A stretch of DNA of 13,261 nt from an uncultured archaeon (lineage in GTDB: Archaea; Asgardarchaeota; Heimdallarchaeia; Heimdallarchaeales; Heimdallarchaeaceae), in NCBI GenBank assembly GCA_964549075.1, contig CAZJUB010000073.1, positions 1 to 13,261 on the forward strand. The letters run 5' to 3'. Numbering within the stretch: the first letter of the stretch is position 1; each line of letters opens with the position of its first letter. The notes beneath the pieces were generated by a model. The model saw only the letters and a list, made by a program, of their open reading frames with translations, ran no database searches and was not told where the DNA came from. The position numbers were made by a program, and so were the translations under genes. Below are positions 612 to 13,261 of the stretch, piece after piece.

Positions 612-1381
612 TCTGTTCCTTTATCTAGTGGGAAATATACTGGAAAAATAAGTCTAGCAAAATTTTGATAGATTTCAACATTATAATCTTGCTGTTCTAT
701 TAATCCCTCTAATTTTACTATTTCTGATTCTGAATAACCTTTCATATCAGGTAAATTGCCAACTTCAGCATAATCTAAAATTTTACAGATAATTTCCCCT
801 AATTCATCTAATTCAAGATAGCATTCAAGTAAAATGTGAGTATGATGTGTTAGTTGCTCAATTTGTTTCTCGTCTGGAACTGAATTAGCAATTCTAACAA
901 CAGACAGTATTGCTGCTCTTCTGGTAATATAATCTCTTGCATATACAACATTCTTAAGAGAATAGAGAACATCCACATCATCCAGATACCCTATAGCTCT
1001 TATTGCTGCATACTGGAGATCATAATCACTTTCTTCAAGAATTTTCACTAAATAAGGTTTTGATGCATAATCTTTCAAATGACCTAAAACTTCAAGTGTA
1101 GATAATTTAATTGCTAAAGAGCTTCCTTCTATCAATTTATGTAAATGATTGAGAATTGCTGCTTTAATTTCAGGATATTTAGAAGCTAATTCAACCATTG
1201 TTGATGCTGCAGCGTTTCTCACATTCCAGTCTGAGTCTTCAAGCAGAGGATAAATCTTTTTGATATCTTTCTCTTTCCCCCTTCTTCGAATGAACAAAGA
1301 ATAATAAGCTCTATCCAGAGGATCATTACTCTTAAGTTTTCTACTTATAGTTAAGCTTCTTAAAAAATCTATGAAAGTCAT
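608..1381 (-). CDS. HEAT-repeat (PBS lyase/HEAT_2-like) protein
   Basis: Tandem helical repeats LLEDSDWNVRNAAASTMVEL, LIEGSSLAIKLSTLEVLGHL, ILEESDYDLQYAAIRAIGYL and VVYARDYITRRAAILSVVRI. ATGA overlap with the upstream gene and SD-like GAGGGG at 1393-1398. Confidence 0.9.
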   Translation of the reverse strand: MTFIDFLRSLTISRKLKSNDPLDRAYYSLFIRRRGKEKDIKKIYPLLEDSDWNVRNAAASTMVELASKYPEIKAAILNHLHKLIEGSSLAIKLSTLEVLGHLKDYASKPYLVKILEESDYDLQYAAIRAIGYLDDVDVLYSLKNVVYARDYITRRAAILSVVRIANSVPDEKQIEQLTHHTHILLECYLELDELGEIICKILDYAEVGNLPDMKGYSESEIVKLEGLIEQQDYNVEIYQNFARLIFPVYFPLDKGTD

Positions 1382-2952
1382 AATTCAAACAACCCCTCTT
1401 TTATAAGATAACTGATAGCTCCTCTCTGAGGTTGAGTAAGTTTTTTCAGATGAATATAATCAATGTTTCTGATTTCAAATTTCTCTTCTTTCTCATCATC
1501 TAATTCAAATTTGTATGCATCTTTTCGCTTTGTTACTTGAACAGCTCTTGTTATAACAGGTAAATGATAGGGAGAAAGAGATTTATATTTAGTTTTATGT
1601 ACTGCAAATAATGTAGCAACATGAATTCCTCCTACTTTCTTAAAGACGACGATATCAGCAAAAGCAGGAAGAATTGTCTTGAAATCATCTCTGTAGAGAG
1701 CCATATGATTATGTAAAATCACTAACTGATCGATTCCAACACCATAATCATTAGCTTCAAACACATATACTTTCTTATCATCTACTTTTACATATCCTTT
1801 TGAGGAAATACTTGGATTATCATCAAGTAGTTGTCCAAATGTAGAGTACTTTCGTCGATAGATTTTACTCACATATTCTTCTATTTGACGCCATCCATAT
1901 GCATAAACTGACCATATATCAGACCACCTACTCCTAGATGAGTGCCAATGATCAACAACATATTCTGAATGAGTGTTTTTATTTACAGCAAGTAAATCTT
2001 TGATTTCATCCCATGTAAACTCTTCAAGAAATTCAATATCAGATGCATATGAGAACAATTTCTCAAACATTTTCTTTTCATCTTTGTATTTAGTCAAAAG
2101 TTTACTAACAGCTATCTGGCTGAAAACACCGATAGGTGGTGCTATTAAAGCTTTTAAACCACGAGGATACATTATTGATCTATCTTCATGTCTTTTTGGT
2201 AGTTGATACTCTTCTTTTTTCAACAGATAATCAATTGCTTTTTGTTGGATATAGTGGGCAAATCCCTCATCTATCAAATCATGTAGATGTTTCTTTCGTG
2301 CGGTTTTAGCTCTTTCCCCGATTAGGTTAATAGCTTCAATTGAGAAATTGTTAAATAGAGTATATTTTCTTGCATCTTCAGGAGGAGTATAGAAATCTTC
2401 TACACCGGCTTCAGTAAATAGTCTAATTACTCCAATTAAATCTTGGAAATATTGCCATGCCCAAACATGTTTATTTTTCGAGACTTTATTTAGTTGATAT
2501 ACATTATTGCTCATCAATTCTTTTAATATAACATCTAATTGATACAATTGAGCTAATGTTCTTGCAGAATTTGATTCAGTCTTTTCATTCATTAAAGCAT
2601 GGGCAAAAGCGTGGACAAACATTATCCGTAGAGTAAACTCTTGTTCCTTGGTCAGTTCATATGAAGGAACTGAGAGATAAATTAAAGTTGGTAAGGAATT
2701 GTAAACTGTTTCTTTACTTGTTGGCAAAAAATCGTTTATTCGTGCTGCTCTTAAATTTGTTATTTGTTCAGAAGTTAATATTGCTTGTGGAGTTCCTGTT
2801 ACCTCTAACACTCGATTTACGGAAACATGCATCTCAGGATTTAGAAAGATTAAAACTCTATAATTTTCAGGAGTTTCACCAACTAGAGTTTTGAAATCTT
2901 TTCGAGCATTTTCGTAAACAACAATTATTTCAGCAAGTTCTTCTTTAAGCAT
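1378..2952 (-). CDS. Divergent SpoVR/YcgB-like protein (zincin-like HxxxH...EGxAxY)
   Basis: Five colinear blocks resemble remembered SpoVR consensus: ETVYNSLPTLIYL (~YELVINSxPCxAxL), IMFVHAFAH (~LIVAHVxxH), LIDEGFAHYIQQK (~IMNEGWASYWH), SDIEFLEEF (~SDxSFLRxY) and VYVFEANDY...LVILH. It sits directly after the AAA+ and vWA genes. Confidence 0.65.
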   Translation of the reverse strand: MLKEELAEIIVVYENARKDFKTLVGETPENYRVLIFLNPEMHVSVNRVLEVTGTPQAILTSEQITNLRAARINDFLPTSKETVYNSLPTLIYLSVPSYELTKEQEFTLRIMFVHAFAHALMNEKTESNSARTLAQLYQLDVILKELMSNNVYQLNKVSKNKHVWAWQYFQDLIGVIRLFTEAGVEDFYTPPEDARKYTLFNNFSIEAINLIGERAKTARKKHLHDLIDEGFAHYIQQKAIDYLLKKEEYQLPKRHEDRSIMYPRGLKALIAPPIGVFSQIAVSKLLTKYKDEKKMFEKLFSYASDIEFLEEFTWDEIKDLLAVNKNTHSEYVVDHWHSSRSRWSDIWSVYAYGWRQIEEYVSKIYRRKYSTFGQLLDDNPSISSKGYVKVDDKKVYVFEANDYGVGIDQLVILHNHMALYRDDFKTILPAFADIVVFKKVGGIHVATLFAVHKTKYKSLSPYHLPVITRAVQVTKRKDAYKFELDDEKEEKFEIRNIDYIHLKKLTQPQRGAISYLIKEGLFEL

Positions 2953-4330
2953 ACAATATACTCTCCTTTAATATCTGCTCTCCAAGATTTTTGACTTGAG
3001 CAGGATCAACTAAAATAGGGCGTGTTATGCCTTTGAGCATTTGTTTTGTATGAATATAGATTTCTTTATTTCTAAGTGATTCAGGGCCCATCAAGAAATA
3101 AGAGATGTTCCAATTTCTTGATCTATCATTTTTCAAACTTGAAAAAATTCCATTTAGTTGCAGCAAGCATTCAATTGTGTCAGGTTTAGTGTTGGTATCT
3201 ATTTCATTAAAATATTTCTTAAGCTCACTATTTGTTTTATAGTTGAATGGATAAGAAGGAACGTTAGGCATTCCGTCAGTTATGATAGTGAATTGAATAT
3301 CTATATCTTTGTATTTATGTTGTTTCTTTGCATGTTCTATTGCAGCTAAAACACTTTGAACCATGTATGTTTTTCCACGAGCTTCAGCTGTTAATAGAAG
3401 TTGTTCCATGTCTTTGTCCGAATCTACAACTTTCGGATTTTTTCTTATTGGAACCACAGCAAGCTTGAACATGTCATAACGTTTTCTTTTTCTTCTGTTT
3501 AACGTCTTGAAATAATAGTAGAGGCTGAGGCTAGTTAGGAGGGCACCATCTAAACGAGACATTCCACCCTCAAAAACAGTTTTACGCATGGATTGACTCA
3601 TATCAACAATAAGATATACCAAAGAACGACGGTCTTTCTTTACCCTCATAATGTCTTCTTGTTTGACTTCAGTTGGAGGAATAGATTGAGAACTAAGAAT
3701 AGCACTTCTGTAAGTTTCCTTTAATCTTATTATGCCTCGAGGACGTTTATGAACTTCATCTATAGGTACATCAGAAATTTGTTTTACTAAATACCTTCCT
3801 AAAATTTTGCCTAACAAATCCATTACACTTTCTCTTGAAATTCTCTTTTTTCTTCCAAAAGCATCCGTAATCTCTATATCAACAATATCCTTCAGTTGAT
3901 TTAGTTTTTCTGCTAAGCTTTGGAGATCAATAGATCCTTCATATTTGATTTCCTTTAAAAGTTCTTGAATATATTTGAGAATATCTTCAACTGTTTGAAG
4001 TTCATTTCTATTTACTCTCTCTAGTACATCAGGTAGGACACGTTCGCCAATGAAACGAAGTAGTTTCATTTCGTTGATTAATCTTTCTTCTTCAGGAGCA
4101 GTTAAAGGTGTATTCATTATTTTTTGTAGAATGTTCTCTATAGCAACAGCATTTTTGGAAGCTATAGATAAAACAGCACCTTCACGTGAGCTTCTACCCA
4201 AGTGTGGATTTCTCCATAATTTTAATACTTGAGCAGCATCTTCAAATTCAAGAATAAACTCTTGGTTACTATAATGCTGTAATGGATCAGCAAATTCTGC
4301 TTCTGTTACGAAATATATTCGATGGGGCAT
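2945..4330 (-). CDS. von Willebrand factor A (vWA) domain protein, AAA+ partner (YeaH/CoxE/ChlD-like)
   Basis: MIDAS DxSxS in LIVDMSQSM (D243), T in GKTY and D in IITDGMPN. The pre-vWA segment LKETYRSA...EDIMR is typical of AAA-associated vWA proteins, and the N-terminal half is helical. Confidence 0.9.
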   Translation of the reverse strand: MPHRIYFVTEAEFADPLQHYSNQEFILEFEDAAQVLKLWRNPHLGRSSREGAVLSIASKNAVAIENILQKIMNTPLTAPEEERLINEMKLLRFIGERVLPDVLERVNRNELQTVEDILKYIQELLKEIKYEGSIDLQSLAEKLNQLKDIVDIEITDAFGRKKRISRESVMDLLGKILGRYLVKQISDVPIDEVHKRPRGIIRLKETYRSAILSSQSIPPTEVKQEDIMRVKKDRRSLVYLIVDMSQSMRKTVFEGGMSRLDGALLTSLSLYYYFKTLNRRKRKRYDMFKLAVVPIRKNPKVVDSDKDMEQLLLTAEARGKTYMVQSVLAAIEHAKKQHKYKDIDIQFTIITDGMPNVPSYPFNYKTNSELKKYFNEIDTNTKPDTIECLLQLNGIFSSLKNDRSRNWNISYFLMGPESLRNKEIYIHTKQMLKGITRPILVDPAQVKNLGEQILKESILYA

Positions 4331-4364
4331 AACATCATCTCTACTAGTTGCAATAAGATTATTT

Positions 4365-5915
4365 TTAGATATAATCCACTTTTAGTAACTGTTCATATGA
4401 TAATCTGAGTTTTTCAACAATTTTATTACGAATGTTTTCTTTGAACTTATCAAGACCTTCAAATCTTATAATCAATTCTGAGAGCTCTTTATCACTCAAA
4501 GCTTTCATTTTAGAGATATCTTCAGATATATCTTGAACACTGATTGAAACTTCAGCTTCTTTTATAGCTGTTCGAAGGGTGATTTTCAATTGCTGTAAAG
4601 AATCATTTATCATTGAGACTGGAACATCAAAAGCACCCATGGTACTACGAATCTTTTCTAATGTTATTACATTAACATCAGAGACTTCATCTTCTCTTAA
4701 TTGGAGTAATACGGTTTCTCCTATGATATTATTCATAGTACGAAGATCAATATGGGGGTTCCTTTGTGGATCGTGGATTTCATCAAGGCCTGAATAGAAA
4801 TCATTTCTTGCCATTCGGCTTTCAGAACGTAGACCCTTCATTTTTAGAGTTTCAGGAAGGGAATTATTTCCTAAGAAAGCCAAGAAATCAATTGCTAGTC
4901 TGCTAACATAATCAGTTGTTTCTTTCTCGAGTTCATGAAGTTGTATAATCGAAGGATTGGCTGTAATTTTCTTTCTTGTAAGAACTAATTGTTCTTCAAA
5001 CATATCCTTAAGAATTTGTTCTCTGCTTTCTACTGAACGTGCAGGCCACAAGACTTCAGGAATACGGTTGATAATAGGTTGACTTTCTTCTCCAAATACT
5101 GTTAGAGGAGCATTGGATGTGAAAATCACTGCACCATCAATGTATACTGGTTCTCCTTGGATGTTATACTTAATACCCATAGGTTCCTCTAGAAAACCCA
5201 TAAGAGATTCCAGTAAACTCAGGGGGAGTCTTTGTATTTCGTTAACTACAATAAAACCATGTGAAAGAACACCAACTTTGTGTGATGAAGCAGCAAAGGT
5301 AGTTGAAGTGTTTTTTCCGAAAAGCTCTTCCAGATTTTCAACTCCAGCTAATAGCATATAGAGACTTTCAGGGTCTGTTCTTGGATCAAGTTGTGACCTT
5401 CGAACCACAGTTTTCGTTGCATCCAATTTACTTAATCTACTAACAATTTCTTTTGGAGGTATTTCTAGAATACTATTGGTATTATCCAATTGAACTTCAG
5501 CACCATCTATTGAAAGTGCTTTTTCCATATTTTGTCTACAATATGGACACAGAGATTGCATAACTCTTATTCCAGCAAAGGGATTTGTAGTGAAGTTATT
5601 GATAATATCGACTATATATCCTGCGTCTTCCAAGAACGGACAACCAGAGATGTGATACTTGGAGTTATTGATTTCTCTGACTATATGATCAAGTAATACT
5701 CTAGCAAATAGTGTTTTTGCTTCTCCAGTTGGACCAGTAAGAAGTACTTTTCCTCCAACTGCAAGTTTATCCATTACAAGATTTTTACCTATTTCATTTC
5801 CTCTGACGCTAACATCTTTTAGAACTCTATCTCGGAATTCAGGATTCATTAGAATAGATCTAACTGAAAATCCGTCATATCCATCTTTCATTAATTTTTG
5901 TATTGAGAGTGTCAT
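4365..5915 (-). CDS. AAA+ ATPase, PrkA/YeaG- or Mg-chelatase I/MoxR-like
   Basis: Walker A VLLTGPTGEAKT (G61-T68), Cys insert YHISGCPF...LCPYC, variant Walker B FIVVNE, sensor-1 VIFTSN, Arg finger PIINRI and a possible sensor-2 DLRT. Confidence 0.88.
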   Translation of the reverse strand: MTLSIQKLMKDGYDGFSVRSILMNPEFRDRVLKDVSVRGNEIGKNLVMDKLAVGGKVLLTGPTGEAKTLFARVLLDHIVREINNSKYHISGCPFLEDAGYIVDIINNFTTNPFAGIRVMQSLCPYCRQNMEKALSIDGAEVQLDNTNSILEIPPKEIVSRLSKLDATKTVVRRSQLDPRTDPESLYMLLAGVENLEELFGKNTSTTFAASSHKVGVLSHGFIVVNEIQRLPLSLLESLMGFLEEPMGIKYNIQGEPVYIDGAVIFTSNAPLTVFGEESQPIINRIPEVLWPARSVESREQILKDMFEEQLVLTRKKITANPSIIQLHELEKETTDYVSRLAIDFLAFLGNNSLPETLKMKGLRSESRMARNDFYSGLDEIHDPQRNPHIDLRTMNNIIGETVLLQLREDEVSDVNVITLEKIRSTMGAFDVPVSMINDSLQQLKITLRTAIKEAEVSISVQDISEDISKMKALSDKELSELIIRFEGLDKFKENIRNKIVEKLRLSYEQLLKVDYI

Positions 5916-5931: not shown

Positions 5932-6534
5932 TTATATATCTAGATTATTTTCTTCTTCTGTAGTAATCTGAATTTCTACAGGTTTAATTTTTGAAAGTAA
6001 TTTTTCTTTTTCTTCCCATGACTTAACATGTCCAATATGAATCACCTTTTTCAACCAGTTTAATGCTTCCAAAATTGAAGGAATATCAGGTGTTTCAAAA
6101 AGGTTCCAGAGCCTATCAGTTAAACGAATCAGTGAAAGATTCTCTATTAGTTCACCTCTGGATAATGCTCCTTGCAGATTAGAATTATATGCACAAAGAG
6201 CAATTGGTAAATTTTGAGCTTCCGCATTCCAAACTATTTTTTCCCACAGAAAATTTCTTTCATGTTTTATCATTTCTTCTTTTGTTGCATCAATCAGATA
6301 CAACAAACCTTCAAAAGGTACGAATTGATTATACTTAAACTGAAAATTTAAAGTGTAAGGAAGTTCTACTAGGGAGCTATCAATAATGAATTCATTAAGT
6401 GATGTTTCTGACCTAATTAGTAGCGATCTGTTTCTAGTAGCTGGATTATTATCCCCCAAGATAAGGATAGAAACCTCTGGGTAGCCTAGTTTCCTACGAA
6501 GTGATCGTCTGAAATTCTGGATAAAGTTAGTCAT
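5932..6534 (-). CDS. Arf-family small GTPase-like protein with degenerate G motifs (probable pseudo-GTPase)
   Basis: Colinear with Arf1 by eye: EVSILILG~[18 protein letters not shown]~[39 protein letters not shown]~[37 protein letters not shown]~LYEGLDWL. It has an amphipathic N-terminal helix but lacks GKT, DxxG and NKxD. Confidence 0.8.
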   Translation of the reverse strand: [200 protein letters not shown]

Positions 6535-6564
6535 TGGGCTTCGCTAAAAAGGAAGGACTCTGAA

Positions 6565-6571
6565 TATTTAA
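6565..6571 (-). promoter_or_regulatory. Putative TATA box (TTAAATA) for the five-gene operon
   Basis: 31-37 nt upstream of ATG6534, within the 191-nt divergent intergenic region. Confidence 0.35.
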
Positions 6572-6725: not shown

Positions 6726-7214
6726 ATGAAAATACTGAACATTGTTGTGGGGAGTATTGAATATAAGGACACACTCTTGCTAATTAGAAGAGAAAGAGGT
6801 GATTATAAGCACAAGTGGGCCTTGGTAGGAGGGAAGATGAATTTTGATGAGGAAATAAAAGAAGCTCTTCTTAGAGAGATTAAAGAAGAAACAGGTTTGT
6901 CTGTTAAATTTAAAGGGGTAAAATCAATTATTAATGAAAAACTAAAAGATAAAAAAACCAACATTACTGTTAAGCAATTCCTTATTTTTCTTTGTTTAAC
7001 TGAAGCAGAATCATATAAGTTAAAAGAATCTGATGAAGGAGAATTGCGTTGGTTCTCAGATGAGGAAATTATGAATGAAAAAGAGAATATCATTCCATCC
7101 GATTATCTAATGATTACTGAGTTACTAAATAAAAACAATATGAATTCTATAATTGAACTTGATTTGTTAGAAGAAGAAACAAAACTGGAAATAGGTGTAT
7201 TCAAAGAGTATTAA
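6726..7214 (+). CDS. Nudix hydrolase
   Basis: Complete Nudix box GKMNFDEEIKEALLREIKEETGL (GX5EX7REUXEEXGU), preceded by LLLIRR...WALVGG. Confidence 0.95.
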   Translation: MKILNIVVGSIEYKDTLLLIRRERGDYKHKWALVGGKMNFDEEIKEALLREIKEETGLSVKFKGVKSIINEKLKDKKTNITVKQFLIFLCLTEAESYKLKESDEGELRWFSDEEIMNEKENIIPSDYLMITELLNKNNMNSIIELDLLEEETKLEIGVFKEY

Positions 7215-7226
7215 GGTTAGGAAATA

Positions 7227-8180
7227 TTATGCAATAATTTTCTCGAATTCTTTTTCATCTATACTTGATCCACTGATTAAAAGAACGACTTTAGATTCTT
7301 GAAAAACTTTGATCTTCTGTATAAATGCAGCAATTGTTAAAGCTGCTGCACCTTCCACTATCATCTCATGTTTATTATAGAGAAATCTTAAAGCATTTCT
7401 GATTTCATCTTCTGATACTAAAACATAATCATCTACATAATTTTTACAATATCCAAAGGTTATAGAATCAGATTCTAAACCTCCAGCAGTACCATCAGAA
7501 AGTGTAGGGAGAGAATCATAGGCTAAAATTTTACCAGCTTTTATTGATTCATACATAACAGGCGAATTGAGTGGTTGACTTCCTATTATCTTAGCTGTTT
7601 TTGATTTACTCTTAAAATAACCAGCAATACCTGAAATTAAACCACCTCCTCCAACTGGTACAAGGATATAATCAAGTTCTTCTATTTGTTTTTCTAATTC
7701 AATGCCTATAGTCCCCTGACCAGCGACAACCAACAGATCATTATAAGGTGAAATATAAGTCAAATTCCTTTTTTCAGCATAATTACGAGCAAAAATTTCT
7801 GCTTGAACACAGTCATCACCATAGAGTATGACTTCTACATTTTTCTCCTTTAAAGCTTTAACCTTAATAGGTGATGCATTCCTTGGTAGAAAGATGGTTC
7901 CTTTTAAACCTAATTTTGTTATTCCATAAGCAAATGCTGCGCCATGATTTCCAGAGGAAGCTGTAACGAACTCAAGTTCATCTTTGTCAGCACTATAGGA
8001 AATCAGACTATTTAGTGCTCCTCGAATCTTGAAAGAACCAGTCTTTTGTTGATTTTCAAGTTTTAGATAAACATCGCAGTTCCCCATCTCACTTAAAATT
8101 GGTGCATACTCTAGTTTGGTCTCTTTAATTGAAGACCTAATTCTCTTCTCTGCTCTAAGTATTTCTTCAAGTAAAGTCAT
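7227..8180 (-). CDS. PLP-dependent threonine/serine dehydratase (fold type II, no regulatory domain)
   Basis: LKLENQQKTGSFKIRGA (PLP lysine), ASSGNHG, AGQGTIGIE, VPVGGGGLISG and VEGAAA. At 317 aa it lacks C-terminal ACT domains. Confidence 0.93.
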   Translation of the reverse strand: MTLLEEILRAEKRIRSSIKETKLEYAPILSEMGNCDVYLKLENQQKTGSFKIRGALNSLISYSADKDELEFVTASSGNHGAAFAYGITKLGLKGTIFLPRNASPIKVKALKEKNVEVILYGDDCVQAEIFARNYAEKRNLTYISPYNDLLVVAGQGTIGIELEKQIEELDYILVPVGGGGLISGIAGYFKSKSKTAKIIGSQPLNSPVMYESIKAGKILAYDSLPTLSDGTAGGLESDSITFGYCKNYVDDYVLVSEDEIRNALRFLYNKHEMIVEGAAALTIAAFIQKIKVFQESKVVLLISGSSIDEKEFEKIIA

Positions 8181-9122: not shown

Positions 9123-10208
9123 ATGGCAGTTAATGCTATACATACTTATCAAGAAAATATTGGGAAAGAAGAATCACAGAAGGGAGAAGTAATTGTTGAA
9201 ACTACAAGGTATCTCGCTATAGATGTATTTAGAGGATTGGCTATAGTCGCAATGATTTTTGCCAATGTTGTAGCTCCTTTTAACAATGTCCCTACTTGGT
9301 CGAAACATGCGGTAGATTATGGATTAACTTATGTAGATCTTGGAACACCATTCTTCTTCTTTGTCATAGGATTAACTTTCGCAATGTCATTTAACCGATC
9401 TACTGAAAAAATAGGATGGTTTCCAACAATTCTGAAATTTCTTAGAAGATATGCAGCTTTATACGGAATGGGTGCTATTGGTGCAATGTACTTTTTTACA
9501 GATAAAGGGATCCTATTTTCATGGGGAGTGTTGCAAGCTATTGGATTAGCAGGTATTTTTACAATGTTTCTTATAAAATTCCATAGAGCGGTAAGATTTG
9601 CACTTGGAATAGGATTCTTAATAGTTTACCAATATATCCTTACAATATCCGTACAAGTAGGAACAGAGCTAGGAGGTACAGAAATGGTGCTTCTAGGTAA
9701 TCTGAATCTGATGGATACACATGGTGGTATTATAGGAGGTATTGGATATTGTATATTGTTACTCCTTTCTACAGCAATAGTGGATGATTTCAGAAAAACT
9801 AAAAAGTGGTTTATTCTTGTATGTGGTGTGATTTTTACTGCTGGAGGGATTATTTTAGAAATTATATGGAGATACACTGGTTGGCCTCCATTTGGAGGAA
9901 TATCAAAAGAGAGAGTTACAGCTTCGTATATTTTGCTTACTATTGGTTTGGGAGCTATTATATTCTGGTTTCTATGGTTTATTTACGATAAAAAACAATT
10001 AACAAAAAATAGAAGTATTTTACAACCCATGGGAAGAAATGCAATCCTTATGTACATTCTGCATCCAATATTTATTGCTTTGACATTCTTAATCTTGGGT
10101 AGCGATGCTCATGTTGCACTTGTATTCTTTCTTGGAATAATTAGTATAGTGATACTTTGGATTTTAGCTTTCTTTCTAAATAAAAAGAACTTCTATATTG
10201 TAATATGA
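9123..10208 (+). CDS. Membrane acetyltransferase, heparan-alpha-glucosaminide N-acetyltransferase (HGSNAT)/DUF5009-like
   Basis: RYLAIDVFRGLAIVAMIFAN, KHAVDYGLTYVDLGTPFFFFVIG (catalytic His block), WGVLQAIG and MGRNAILMY, plus many hydrophobic TM segments. Confidence 0.88.
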   Translation: MAVNAIHTYQENIGKEESQKGEVIVETTRYLAIDVFRGLAIVAMIFANVVAPFNNVPTWSKHAVDYGLTYVDLGTPFFFFVIGLTFAMSFNRSTEKIGWFPTILKFLRRYAALYGMGAIGAMYFFTDKGILFSWGVLQAIGLAGIFTMFLIKFHRAVRFALGIGFLIVYQYILTISVQVGTELGGTEMVLLGNLNLMDTHGGIIGGIGYCILLLLSTAIVDDFRKTKKWFILVCGVIFTAGGIILEIIWRYTGWPPFGGISKERVTASYILLTIGLGAIIFWFLWFIYDKKQLTKNRSILQPMGRNAILMYILHPIFIALTFLILGSDAHVALVFFLGIISIVILWILAFFLNKKNFYIVI

Positions 10209-10217
10209 GGTAGAAAC

Positions 10218-10617
10218 ATGAAAACAATCAATTCAATTACAGATTTAATTGGGAATACTCCACTTTTACGTCTTGGTAAAATCTTTCCTGAAAAAAATAT
10301 CTATGGTAAATGTGAATTTATGAACCCTTTCAACTTGAAAGATATCATGTATAAGGAAATATAAAGCAATTCTAGTAATGTCTGAAATACAGAGTATAGA
10401 AAGACGACAAATTCTTAGAACATTAGGTGCTGAGCTAATTCCTACTAACATGTCTCCCTTTTTCTCTCTTCGTTGATAAATATTCTTTTTTAGTTCATAA
10501 CAAGATTAGCTAAGTTTTTCTTCCTCAGTTGTTTACGATAATAGTAAAAAAAATATTGTTGTTATTCTCGCAGATACAGGTCAAAGATATTTGAGTGTTG
10601 AAGGACTATTTACTTAA
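10218..10617 (+). pseudogene. cysK: Cysteine synthase (O-acetylserine sulfhydrylase, CysK/CysM family) remnant
   Basis: SD GAGGT and ATG10218 are followed by three blocks: SITDLIGNTPLLRL...IYGKCEFMNPFNLKD (stop 10362-10364); then, in a shifted frame, KYKAILVMSEIQSIERRQILRTLGAELIPT (10357-10446); then KKNIVVILADTGQRYLSVEGLFT-stop (ends 10617). It spans only 400 nt against about 900 expected. Confidence 0.9.
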
Positions 10618-10638
10618 TTTACACAGGAAGGTCCAATT

Positions 10639-11655
10639 TCAAATGGTTTTTGGAAAAATAGTAAAATCATTCCACAAAGTGCCATTATCAAAAATCTTTG
10701 CTTCTTTGCATTTTTTAAACATTTTTTTAGCATAATTAATATGATGTATTAAGCTTTGTTTCGATATAAACTCAGGTGAAAATTCCTTATCTCTTATTTC
10801 AAAAACATGTACTAAAGACCAGTAAAAAACATTCAGTATATGAATTGACCATATCTCATTAATTCTAATTTCTAAGTTACTATCTTCTCTCATTTTTAAA
10901 TAATTTCTCAAGAAATACTCTTTTTTTCTTTCCGTGAAATTGAATGAATCAAAAAGCATTGCTAAATCAATTGCTGGATCAGCAATTCTAAGAGATTCCC
11001 AATCAATTAATTTTAGTCTATCATTGTATAATATGACATTTTGAGGAGCAATGTCACAATGACACAATGTAGTTATTTTTGATTTCAAATTTGTATTAGC
11101 TTGAACTCTTAATCTACAGTTTGTTAGAAAAATGCCAAATTTTTCACTGAGATTATACTTTTTCCATTTATATACCAAATAGTTATGCATTTTTTCAATG
11201 TCAGAAAAAAAATCTTGTATACTCAAATCATTAGGTCGGTACCTAGTATTAATGTTATTCGAAATTTCTTGGTTATGAAATGTTGCAACTAATTGGGCAA
11301 GTTTTCTAATAATATTATCATCAATTTTAATATTAACAAGATTCTGACCTTCAAAGAAATCTACTAAAATAAAGGTTCCTCCTAAAATTTTAGGATTATT
11401 CTCATAAAGATAAATCCTTGGAGCAAAATCAAACTTTTCTAGAAATTTTAAATTATTATATTCTATATGTGATTTTAAAGGACTTTTTGGGTCTACATTA
11501 ACACGAAGAATAAATTGCTTTTGATTTATTTCTACTTTATAATTGAGATTACTCTCTCCCAGTTCAGGTGATTGAATATTTCCTATAGTTATTTCATCAG
11601 AGTTAAACATCAACGGATTTAATGAAAAAAGATAATTCTTTATTTTAGATTTCAT
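10639..11655 (-). CDS. Aminoglycoside phosphotransferase/choline-ethanolamine kinase family protein
   Basis: GESNLNYKV loop, FILRV, Brenner motif CHCDIAPQNV, and LIDWE...DPAIDLA. Confidence 0.9.
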   Translation of the reverse strand: MKSKIKNYLFSLNPLMFNSDEITIGNIQSPELGESNLNYKVEINQKQFILRVNVDPKSPLKSHIEYNNLKFLEKFDFAPRIYLYENNPKILGGTFILVDFFEGQNLVNIKIDDNIIRKLAQLVATFHNQEISNNINTRYRPNDLSIQDFFSDIEKMHNYLVYKWKKYNLSEKFGIFLTNCRLRVQANTNLKSKITTLCHCDIAPQNVILYNDRLKLIDWESLRIADPAIDLAMLFDSFNFTERKKEYFLRNYLKMREDSNLEIRINEIWSIHILNVFYWSLVHVFEIRDKEFSPEFISKQSLIHHINYAKKMFKKCKEAKIFDNGTLWNDFTIFPKTI

Positions 11656-11807
11656 TTAAAACAAAACTAATATCAGCTGGTTATATCTTTTATTTTCCAA
11701 TCAATTTGAGAGAAAGTGTCATATTTTTTAAAATTACTCTAATTTTTAGGTAAGATTTATGAGATACTGTCTTTTAATTACTTAAAATTACTTGTGTTGA
11801 TCTTTAA

Positions 11808-13261
11808 ATGAAAAATTTGGAAATTGAAACTGAAATGAAAGCTCCTTCTTATGCTCCTATGAAACGTTTTGCAAGTATAGATTTCTTACGAGGTTTGGCT
11901 ATTTTCATTATGATCTTTCTCCATATGGTTGGAGATTACCTTGATATTGACACACTTCTTGCTGATGTAAATCAGATTCCTCTAATAAATATAGTAGCTC
12001 TCATTGTTCTACCCCTGTTAGGTGGTTTAGCAGGTTTATTCTTGATTGCTTCATCCATTTCTAATATGCTAAGTATGCAAAAAAATCTTCAGCAAGGAAA
12101 AAGTATAGGTTCGATTGTGGTAAAGCAAATTATAGGAGGAATTGTTTTGCTTTTCTTTGCAATGTTGACTGAAGGGTTTACAGGTTATCATGGAACTATT
12201 GGAAATTTCATTTTAAACTTGAATAATCCCCCACTATCATTTAACATGGATATTGCAATGACTCAGTGGGCTACCTTCGAAGCAATTCATACAATAGCTT
12301 GGTGTGTTATTTTAAATGGAATTGTCCAAGGATTGCTTTCTATCAGAGGTTGGTGGAAGAAACCAAAACGCCAAATGCTAATTTATGTGGTTTTAATCAT
12401 AATCGTTCTTGCATCTACAAAATTTATCTGGACCGGGATTTATAATGGTATCAAAGGAACTGATGGGATTGGATTCCCTTGGGGACACAACGTAGACGGA
12501 ACTTTTTTGTCTAATCCAAACCTTCGTACATCAGGATTCTCTGCAGTAATCATAGGAATTTTTGTGAACCCTCTTGCTGCTCCAATGGAACCAATATTCC
12601 CATATCTAGCTGTATCATTTATGGGAAGTATAATTGGTATTGCAATTTCCCAACCTAAAAAAGCATTATTCAAAGGATTCGCAAAAACTGTACTTTTAAC
12701 TGGCTTTGCAATGTTTACTATTGGTGCTATTGGTACCGTCTTTGAATTAGCTAACATAATGACAGGCATAGATTCTATAGGAGGAGATGGATTTGGTGCA
12801 GGAGTTGAATTCTACAGATACATTTCATTTCATCGCCATTGGTTCCCTGATGCTACACTAGCTTATTCTGATTATATTACGTCATTTGCTTGGTTTTGGC
12901 AGACTTTCATCACTAATGGTTTTAGTATTATGTTGTGTACGATGATTTTGTATTTGGTAGAATTTCGTGGTAGAGGGAGTTATTTTGCCAAGAAGTCAGG
13001 TTACATTCGACGTTATGGAATAATAGCTTTTTCCAACTACAATAATCAATGGATATATTATTTTCCAGTTCTAATGTTGGGAGAGATAGGATTACATCAT
13101 ATGCTTTGGGGTAAAACATTTTTATCTATATTAATCACATTTGTATTATATACTATTGTTTTATACTTATGGGGATTAGTAAATTACCGTTTTTCATTTG
13201 AATGGTTTATGAAATCTATAGGATACATCCTGCTTCCAATTCGAAGAGTTGATGCTTTGAA
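11808..13261 (+). CDS. Polytopic membrane acyltransferase, DUF1624/HGSNAT-like; 3'-truncated by the window end (not in the ORF track)
   Basis: My translation from ATG11808 stays open for 484 codons to the end: MKNLEIETEMKAPSYAPMKRFASIDFLRGLAIFIMIFLH...GGLAGLFLIASSIS...FEAIHTIAW...EPIFPYLAVSFMG...FSFEWFMK. It has many TM segments. Confidence 0.88.
   Translation, partial: MKNLEIETEMKAPSYAPMKRFASIDFLRGLAIFIMIFLHMVGDYLDIDTLLADVNQIPLINIVALIVLPLLGGLAGLFLIASSISNMLSMQKNLQQGKSIGSIVVKQIIGGIVLLFFAMLTEGFTGYHGTIGNFILNLNNPPLSFNMDIAMTQWATFEAIHTIAWCVILNGIVQGLLSIRGWWKKPKRQMLIYVVLIIIVLASTKFIWTGIYNGIKGTDGIGFPWGHNVDGTFLSNPNLRTSGFSAVIIGIFVNPLAAPMEPIFPYLAVSFMGSIIGIAISQPKKALFKGFAKTVLLTGFAMFTIGAIGTVFELANIMTGIDSIGGDGFGAGVEFYRYISFHRHWFPDATLAYSDYITSFAWFWQTFITNGFSIMLCTMILYLVEFRGRGSYFAKKSGYIRRYGIIAFSNYNNQWIYYFPVLMLGEIGLHHMLWGKTFLSILITFVLYTIVLYLWGLVNYRFSFEWFMKSIGYILLPIRRVDAL

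Follow-up and report, generated by a model that had tools for sequence, protein, structure and literature searches.

An Arf-derived pseudo-GTPase linked to AAA+ and VWA genes in Heimdallarchaeaceae and related Asgard archaea

The DNA analysed here, called the window, is a stretch of 13,261 bases (~32% G+C) from the genome of an uncultured archaeon of the Heimdallarchaeaceae, a family of Asgard archaea. Its minus strand carries a cluster of five genes, which encode in order an Arf-like protein without GTP-binding motifs (termed pArf), an AAA+ ATPase, a VWA protein, a 524-aa zincin-like protein and a HEAT-repeat protein (Table 1). The open reading frame (ORF) of pArf has 200 codons, from an ATG at 6534-6532 to a TAA at 5934-5932; read on the plus strand, the same interval (5932-6534) is full of stops. 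The ATG of the AAA+ gene lies 16 nt past the pArf stop, with GAGGT 7 nt before it, and the last three genes of the cluster overlap by 8 and 4 nt. No tRNA and no Rfam family was found in the window.

The original prediction, made from the letters of the window, described pArf as an Arf-family fold that has lost every GTP-binding motif and is kept as a scaffold or adaptor. The strings it quoted (GDNNPATRN, YNSN, G76-LLYLID-82, L133...W143 and E155-ALNWL-160) are all present in the minus-strand translation. The protein starts Met-Thr-Asn and has, as stated, no Gly2, and the frame is intact over 200 aa with a charged C-terminal tail from about residue 169 to 200.

Arf descent is visible in the sequence of the second half of the protein. 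The Pfam Arf profile (PF00025) matches pArf at 24.5 bits (gathering cut-off 22.3; E 2.1e-5), and the match is confined to residues 71-163, which correspond to profile positions 79-172 of 174. The best 60 matches listed in a phmmer search of the PDB are all Arf or Arl chains, the first being the Asgard Arf 8ouk_A (E 2.7e-5). Comparison by hhalign of a family profile (25 pArf relatives) with nine active Arfs, three of them from the window's own genome, gave a probability of 98.6% and an E of 1.1e-15 over residues 70-168 only. The part that aligns with active Arfs is the b4-a3-b5-a4-b6-a5 half. Since residues 1-69 are not alignable by sequence, the protein was modelled. The AlphaFold2 model, built on a 41-sequence alignment, has a predicted local distance difference test score (pLDDT) of 85.4 and a predicted template-modelling score (pTM) of 0.81. 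It consists of helix 2-15, strand 21-28, helix 31-43, strand 49-56, a confident loop 57-75, strand 76-81, helix 86-101, strand 111-115, helix 126-132, strand 143-147 and helix 151-168, followed by an additional helix 173-182 and a disordered tail 186-200.

Searched against the PDB with Foldseek, the model gave 336 matches at E <= 0.001. Those visible at the top of the list are all Arf or Arl, and the best is HodArfR1-GDP (8oul_A; E 3.2e-8, template-modelling scores 0.62/0.67). In VIA-align, with a library of 48,161 representatives, the ten leading chains are all Arf, Arl or Sar (Z 16.1-17.9) and the remaining small GTPases follow at Z 12-14. Arf1 scores 17.9, with a root-mean-square deviation (rmsd) of 2.3 over 148 residues, Arf6 17.7 and HodArfR1 17.3. 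As modelled, the whole of pArf is an Arf G-domain fold closest to Arf/Arl/Sar.

The fold is predicted to depart from Arf in the switch region. Helix a1 and strand b4 are joined in the model by a single strand (49-56) and a 19-residue loop (57-75; pLDDT 91-95), which take the place of Arf strands b2 and b3 and of the switch II helix; the interswitch hairpin and switch II helix would be missing. The N-terminal helix is amphipathic. The Eisenberg hydrophobic moment of residues 1-14 is 0.84, the highest of any 14-mer in the protein, and is reached by 1.1% of 2000 shuffles. An Arf fold, an N-terminal amphipathic helix and a shortened switch region had all been predicted, and all three are borne out, the first by a Pfam score above cut-off together with a model closest to Arf1 and HodArfR1.

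The nucleotide-binding motifs of pArf have gone. The P-loop place reads G27-DNNPATRN-35; the relic, G27-R36, has the length of GxxxxGKT plus two residues and keeps the first Gly (G27). Judged by the spacing after strand b1, Thr33 would take the place of the Lys, and Arg34 that of the Mg-binding Thr. There is no D-x-x-G anywhere in the protein. Y116-N-S-N119 directly follows the predicted strand b5 and is aligned under NKQD of active Arfs, and in that alignment ETPD stands at the G5 place. Since the P-loop Lys and Thr, DxxG, the switch II helix, NKxD and G5 have been lost, pArf is most likely unable to bind or hydrolyse GTP in the canonical manner.

This loss is a property of the whole family and not of the window's copy alone. 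A word-index search for relatives gave 45 clusters including the window's own, at 52-91% identity, one of them a 140-residue fragment. An exhaustive search gave 33 representatives at E <= 0.001, of which the census used 27 (16 distant motif-less members and 11 active-like matches); true Arfs appear in it only from about E 8e-6 on down the list. GxxxxGK[ST] occurs in 0/45 close clusters and 0/16 distant members, and in 8/11 active-like matches. The string [NT]KxD, counted at any position, occurs in 1/45, 2/16 and 10/11, respectively. DxxG strings of the close family lie almost solely at the old G4 place and never at G3, and in four distant members a bare G-K-[ST] survives that lacks the upstream Gly. 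No close orthologue with intact motifs was found among the 45 close clusters and 16 distant members. The claim that every motif is lost thus holds family-wide.

The distribution of pArf was followed in 301 genomes of the phylum, in which f1 denotes the window's own family (Heimdallarchaeaceae) and f2-f7 further Asgard families. A broad family profile finds full-length pArf in 50/301 genomes at E <= 8.5e-37, namely 28/29 of f1 (the window's genome included), 1/1 of f2, 11/11 of f4 and 10/11 of f6. One f3 genome lies below the gap in this search (1.3e-12), and a targeted search found divergent, equally motif-less relatives of 158-170 aa in 3/3 f3 genomes. Twelve f5 and f7 genomes match the profile at 1e-8 to 1e-11 over the C-terminal half only; these are probably true Arfs. 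The 23 further families of the sample gave no match to the profile. pArf is single-copy in 27/28 sampled f1 genomes and, in a separate genome search, in 29/30.

In the window's genome (3.2 Mb in 217 contigs, 89.7% complete), pArf ranks 39th (24 bits) of 40 Arf-family matches. The paralogues that score higher include at least three canonical Arfs, which carry GLDAAGKT, DVAGQ and NKQD. Seven of the 40 matches lie on one contig, C15 (loci L001, L005, L007, L009-L011). Five of these stand within ~10 kb and are ~300-320-aa proteins with a canonical G domain and a long C-terminal extension; one of the C15 matches has an internal TAA. As judged by its matches, pArf is a derived offshoot whose lineages make up part of a single Asgard class (five families). 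The relevance to the prokaryotic ancestry of Arf functions that had been suggested for it is accordingly weak, there being also about 38 better Arf-family matches in the genome.

Conservation within the family is uneven. Across the 41-sequence alignment, five residues never vary (W97, W102, L135, R137 and D140). The mean top-residue frequency is highest in the a4-b6 loop (0.87); it is 0.73 in b6, 0.55 at the P-loop place and 0.42 at the G5 place, and the tail is the least conserved part (0.30-0.47) and varies in length among relatives. Family-wide, conservation has thus shifted from the old pocket to a surface made by a3 and the a4-b6 loop.

Within the close family the pocket has kept residues of its own. 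[TA]RNR is present in 45/45 close clusters, 0/16 distant members and 0/11 active-like matches, and [YF]N[ST]x in 44/45 (the exception being the fragment), 1/16 and 0/11. G27, R34, N35 and R36 are invariant in 25/25 aligned relatives, and the G4 place is conserved at 0.86 within the family. Some named pseudoGTPases bind nucleotide. pArf could then be an atypical ligand-binding switch, whose remodelled pocket (G27, T33, R34, N35, R36, Y116, N117) binds nucleotide or an anionic ligand non-canonically and so regulates the AAA+/VWA machine; the P-loop length and first Gly retained after b1 would fit such a pocket. However, the distant members (f4, f6 and f3 types) share neither TRNR nor YNSx, so the pocket residues are subfamily-specific whereas the a3 and a4-b6 surface is family-wide. 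In addition, pArf lacks the Lys and Thr for phosphate and Mg, DxxG and the switch II helix. We consider a switch of this kind unlikely.

pArf has been under purifying selection. The ratio of nonsynonymous to synonymous substitution rates (dN/dS), estimated by Nei-Gojobori from the coding sequences of 24 orthologues at genome loci, is 0.031-0.272 over the 71 of 276 pairs with dS 0.05-1.5. Over the 51 pairs with dS 0.2-1.5, the median is 0.084 in residues 70-168, against 0.128 in residues 1-69 and 0.245 in the tail. A tree of Arf-family rows, 31 motif-less and 20 active, has a single branch that parts the two sets (Shimodaira-Hasegawa-like approximate likelihood ratio test support 99), and the same split is seen on 83 columns of the C-terminal half that leave out those of G4 and G5. 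The split fits one loss; since the tree is unrooted and the branch long, it is not proof of a single loss. The motif-less family would have a single, old origin that predates several families.

These results bear on the possibility that pArf is a decaying or recently inactivated Arf paralogue without a function of its own, which the number of Arf-family matches in the genome and the low rank of pArf among them make plausible as redundancy. However, the dN/dS values, the single-copy state in f1, the single old origin and the conservation of the replacement motifs themselves all argue otherwise. The frame is intact in all full-length homologues listed; stops fall inside the match in 1/30 full-length rows of the f1 search and, in the 301-genome search, only in f2, f4 and f6 rows. 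Decay is exceedingly improbable, and the earlier view that the gene is kept stands, on dN/dS and on the lack of close orthologues with intact motifs. pArf combines two marks of a pseudoGTPase, loss of the consensus motifs and purifying selection. That it is a functional Arf-derived pseudo-GTPase is the part of our interpretation held with by far the greater confidence, well above that given to the role proposed below.

The AAA+ gene has nearly the same distribution as pArf. It is present in 51/301 genomes (f1 28, f2 1, f3 3, f4 11, f6 8) and in no further family, and at strict thresholds 48 genomes have both genes; one f1 genome (G008, 86% complete) has neither. In 27/28 genomes of f1 the two genes share a strand and pArf comes immediately before the AAA+ gene, at 18-63 nt by match coordinates; in the 28th both genes are cut by contig ends. 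The same arrangement is found in 8/8 f6 genomes and 6/11 f4 genomes; in two further f4 genomes (G040, G044) the contigs are too short to judge. The full five-gene order is present in 4/4 other f1 genera examined, 3/3 f6 loci examined and the f4 genome G035, and in the f4 genome G037 as far as a contig end that cuts the AAA+ gene. The five-gene cluster is vertically inherited and its order is held in three families of the class. Only five short contigs came from two metatranscriptome runs; they all fall within the AAA+ gene (4325-5468) and none on pArf, and DNA carry-over is possible. DNA of the window occurs in samples of salt-marsh type.

The AAA+ protein is divergent and putatively MoxR/ChlI-like. 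It has Walker A GPTGEAKT, a sensor-1 Asn and, as in all seven aligned orthologues, a Walker B N-E in which Asn (Asn225) replaces Asp; ~150 residues separate the Walker motifs and include an invariant LDPRTDPESLYMLLAGVENLE-like block. Pfam matches are weak, with Sigma54_activat in 7/7 orthologues (best 1.9e-5), Mg_chelatase in 3/7 and AAA_5 in 6/7 (best 4.2e-4, below cut-off for the window's protein). The nearest named protein-atlas clusters (score 0.95-0.97) all carry AAA_5, Mg_chelatase or Sigma54 families. A zinc site considered in the insert (Cys92, Cys123, Cys126) was dropped, as the orthologue in locus L039 has Ser at all three. The VWA protein matches VWA_2 in 5/7 orthologues (best E 7.2e-5), and the DxSxS, T and D of its metal-ion-dependent adhesion site (MIDAS) are invariant in 7/7.

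The model of the 524-aa protein (pLDDT 81) resembles zincin metallopeptidases over residues 1-345. VIA-align gives the M1 aminopeptidase 6oiu_A at Z 8.7 (rmsd 3.9 over 173 residues), LTA4H at 8.0, TAF2 at 7.8 and thermolysin at 6.1; zincin peptidases make up most of the 50 rows, at Z values that are borderline. Foldseek of the same model gave no match at E <= 0.001. HAxxH replaces HExxH, there is no Glu at the catalytic place in 7/7 orthologues, and an EGFAxY motif lies downstream. A live metal site was considered and dropped, the HAxxH His residues not being kept in f4. As modelled, the protein would be a dead zincin-like protein and the second dead enzyme of the operon. It has no Pfam family and the protein atlas gave only unnamed bacterial clusters. 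NCBIfam gave no match for pArf, the AAA+ protein or the 524-aa protein, and neither single-sequence nor profile searches of the PDB with the AAA+, VWA and 524-aa proteins gave a significant match.

We propose that pArf is, with reasonable probability, a constitutive, nucleotide-independent subunit or adaptor of an AAA+/VWA assembly. It would be a fixed binding subunit rather than a molecular switch, and would contact its partner through the surface of helix a3 and the a4-b6 loop. In Heimdallarchaeaceae the basic amphipathic helix of pArf may hold the assembly at the membrane. The physical association, the membrane contact and a target remodelled by the AAA+/VWA pair are inferred. Passages of work on MoxR-type systems (PMC7159879; PMC9976466; PMC13036017) describe AAA+ rings that act with a VWA partner, the MIDAS holding a client peptide, and extra components that define the client or the place of action. 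We read pArf as a permanent subunit or adaptor because the extras of the cluster are three non-catalytic binding modules, and the conservation of the operon supports this. The scaffold or adaptor of the original prediction has thus gained a conserved operon with AAA+ and VWA genes, the role itself still being a proposal.

Several observations weigh against the subunit or adaptor reading. Strict conservation of G27 and [TA]RNR at the old phosphate site and of YNS[ND] at the old base site would be unexpected for a wholly functionless pocket. Linkage is imperfect. In the f4 genome G045, pArf and the AAA+ gene are 1.9 kb apart on opposite strands; in the f4 genomes G043 and G046 they are on separate contigs; and in f2 (G001) and f3 another gene lies upstream of the AAA+ gene, the pArf relative being elsewhere. 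The AAA+ protein reaches Pfam cut-offs just marginally, so 'MoxR-like' is a clade-level label. For the membrane part, the amphipathic helix is kept within the window's own family and is weak or missing in the f6-type relative P0049 (moment 0.36) and the distant relative P0050 (0.30); membrane anchoring therefore cannot be a family-wide function. A complex prediction of the AAA+ (516 aa) and HEAT (257 aa) proteins with a pArf partner gave a score that did not drop when the AAA+ chain was replaced, and so is not specific to that chain; it counts neither for nor against binding.

pArf might instead be a client of the AAA+/VWA pair, which would load or extract it at the membrane or at a partner, for example by MIDAS capture of the acidic tail. 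Capture of a substrate peptide by the VWA domain is proposed for MoxR/VWA pairs in parts of PMC7159879. The MIDAS is intact, the model of pArf has an acidic disordered tail (186-200), and no other conserved client gene was found beside the cluster at the loci examined. However, this tail is the least conserved part of pArf and is of varying length, and the other four genes stay together in lineages where pArf is unlinked. We regard a client as rather unlikely, and continue with pArf as a subunit or adaptor.

A more elaborate version of that proposal would have the five proteins form an Asgard-specific, membrane-associated remodelling machine, in which the frozen Arf fold docks the HEAT solenoid and the dead-peptidase scaffold to the membrane via its amphipathic helix and the AAA+/VWA pair assembles or recycles the complex. 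We think this unlikely as a whole. If true, it would be a GTP-independent side branch of the logic by which Arf recruits solenoid adaptors in eukaryotic coats, and Asgard Arf relatives would for the first time have defined effectors.

Table 1 Features of the pArf cluster in the window, with the basis of each assignment.
Feature	Position	Strand	Basis
pArf, Arf-derived pseudo-GTPase gene, P0001, 200 aa	5932..6534	-	ORF, Pfam Arf above cut-off, modelled Arf fold, dN/dS
N-terminal amphipathic, basic helix, residues 2-15 (predicted)	6490..6531	-	Model and hydrophobic moment
P-loop relic G27-R36	6427..6456	-	Sequence; spacing after strand b1
19-residue loop, residues 57-75, predicted to replace Arf strand b3, DxxG and switch II helix	6310..6366	-	Model; no DxxG
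G4 relic Y116-N-S-N119 replacing NKxD	6178..6189	-	Sequence; sits under NKQD in alignment with active Arfs
Family signature L133-x-L-x-x-L-x-x-R-x-W143, a4-b6 loop	6106..6138	-	Conservation, 41-sequence alignment
C-terminal extension past G domain: predicted helix 173-182 and disordered acidic tail 186-200	5935..6030	-	Model
TATA-like TTAAATAT, candidate archaeal promoter, ~33 nt upstream of pArf ATG	6564..6571	-	Inferred from sequence reading only
Divergent AAA+ ATPase, 516 aa	4365..5915	-	Walker motifs, weak Pfam, atlas neighbours
VWA protein, 461 aa, C-terminal VWA domain with complete MIDAS (D243-x-S-x-S247, T321, D352)	2945..4330	-	Pfam, alignment
Zincin-like protein, 524 aa (predicted)	1378..2952	-	Model, VIA-align
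HEAT-repeat protein, 257 aa	608..1381	-	HEAT_2 E 9e-14, HEAT 1.1e-7

The remainder of the window holds other genes. A NUDIX hydrolase (6726-7214, +) is divergently transcribed from pArf, and beyond it lies a pyridoxal phosphate-dependent (PALP) enzyme (7227-8180, -). Loci L033-L035, from three further genera of the family, also have the NUDIX gene beside the cluster, and two of them (L033, L034) have the PALP gene as well. Within 9123-13259, an APH/choline-kinase-like phosphotransferase (10639-11655, -) stands between two membrane proteins that are acyltransferase-3/HGSNAT-like, one at 9123-10208 (+) and one at 11808-13259 (+) that runs off the window. At four f4 loci (L038, L039, L040, L042) a conserved protein of ~210 aa, its N-terminus like a signal peptide, adjoins the pArf relative, and three of them (L038, L039, L042) have a ~240-aa protein; neither was found beside the window's cluster.

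As far as literature searches show, pArf is an apparently undescribed archaeal pseudoGTPase, Arf-derived and embedded in an operon. No description of the family was found in full-text searches on Asgard Arfs and GTPases, archaeal pseudoGTPases, Asgard MoxR/VWA or PrkA/SpoVR. In passages of two Asgard Arf papers (10.1101/2024.02.28.582541 and PMC11914678) there is no pseudo, degenerate or inactive Arf family, nor a VWA or AAA one, and a full-text search for pseudoGTPases and archaea gave nothing on Asgard in the titles and abstracts found. According to passages of the first paper, its phylogenetic annotation step gave no annotation to 159 Asgard Ras-superfamily sequences (10.1101/2024.02.28.582541); the pArf family may be among them. 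Several pArf members are publicly annotated as 'ADP-ribosylation factor-like protein' or 'hypothetical protein', and for several close clusters the names given by the source are 'Candidatus Heimdallarchaeaceae archaeon' and 'ADP-ribosylation factor-like protein'. Since members are annotated as plain Arf-like, Asgard GTPase censuses may count them as switches.

Research on the Arf-family GTPases of Asgard archaea treats them as forerunners of eukaryotic membrane traffic. Working candidates for a GTPase-activating protein or guanine nucleotide exchange factor of Asgard Arfs were not found in one study, according to passages of it (PMC11914678), and no partner or effector of these GTPases is reported in passages of the Asgard Arf literature. 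pArf is an Arf relative whose probable partners can be read from the genome, in the form of four co-inherited genes of which the AAA+ and VWA genes are of a well-known remodelling-pair type. With two dead enzymes, a GTPase and (as modelled) a zincin, beside one live motor, the cluster offers a compact system for the fate of folds after catalysis is lost.

Among known systems, the central trio of the cluster is like the PrkA(YeaG)-YeaH/YhbH(DUF444)-SpoVR(YcgB) module on contig C578 of genome G291, which has the order AAA+, VWA and a ~510-aa protein with HAxxxH and EGFAxY, at similar sizes. Passages of one report describe yeaG, yeaH and ycgB as cofit in six bacteria, their biochemistry being unknown (10.1101/072470). 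The canonical module occurs in 1/301 Asgard genomes (G291, of f7). G291 is listed with 6% contamination and its module may not be archaeal; one of its two canonical SpoVR genes (L083 823-3111, -) encodes 762 aa as against 511, with a ~250-residue insertion near the N-terminus that is possibly an intein. Compared by hhalign with the two G291 SpoVR sequences (a two-sequence profile), the 524-aa family aligns over 47 columns at the shared EGFAxYI motif (11%, E 0.0027). The VWA protein (1.3%) and the AAA+ protein (3%) align with the canonical module, also as two-sequence profiles, at the MIDAS core only and at Walker A only, respectively. Pfam SpoVR (PF04293), DUF444 (PF04285) and AAA_PrkA (PF08298) have no match on the window's contig (C73) at E <= 10, the controls matching in E. 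coli, B. subtilis and H. volcanii. Unlike the cluster, canonical modules have no Arf-like or HEAT gene. That the trio could be a very diverged PrkA-YeaH-SpoVR module is attractive by order, sizes and motifs, and unproven.

In the pairing of an AAA+ protein, weakly matched to the AAA_5/Mg_chelatase/Sigma54 group, with an adjoining MIDAS VWA protein, the cluster is like the MoxR-type pairs NorQ-NorD, CbbQ-CbbO and RavA-ViaA. It differs from them in its very divergent AAA+ protein, with Walker B N-E and the ~150-residue insert. In the MoxR-vWA 'ternary systems' described in passages of PMC7159879, an inactive NTPase (iSTAND) can be the third component and HEAT or TPR scaffolds are common. The pArf cluster likewise has a dead NTPase as an extra component. 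Compared with what those passages describe, this NTPase is a small GTPase and not a STAND protein, Pfam finds no effector domain, variable or other, among the cluster proteins, and the cluster is single-copy, vertically inherited and lineage-restricted, unlike the ternary conflict systems, which diversify, have variable effector domains and are sporadic and multi-copy in distribution (PMC7159879).

As a small-GTPase fold without nucleotide motifs, pArf is like the eukaryotic pseudoGTPases, of which the GTPase-like domain of Fbx4 is an example; chains 3l82_B and 9jkb_C of that domain match the pArf model at Z 12.3-12.4 in VIA-align. CENP-M and the dynein light intermediate chain are also eukaryotic pseudoGTPases. 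Unlike pArf, these proteins are not archaeal, and they are not known to be Arf-derived or linked to an AAA+/VWA operon.

The best sequence and structure matches of pArf are the Asgard ArfR/AArf proteins (HodArfR1, 8OUK/8OUL; GerdArfR1, 8OUM/8OUN) and eukaryotic Arf/Arl/Sar, with which it shares the G-domain fold. HodArfR1 and GerdArfR1 have, in the passages that describe them (10.1101/2024.02.28.582541), an N-terminal amphipathic helix without a myristoylation site, and pArf is like them in this respect. In contrast to both Asgard and eukaryotic Arfs, pArf is without G1, G3, G4 and G5 and is predicted to have one strand and a loop in place of b2/b3 and switch II; it has in addition a C-terminal helix and tail and a fixed AAA+/VWA operon.

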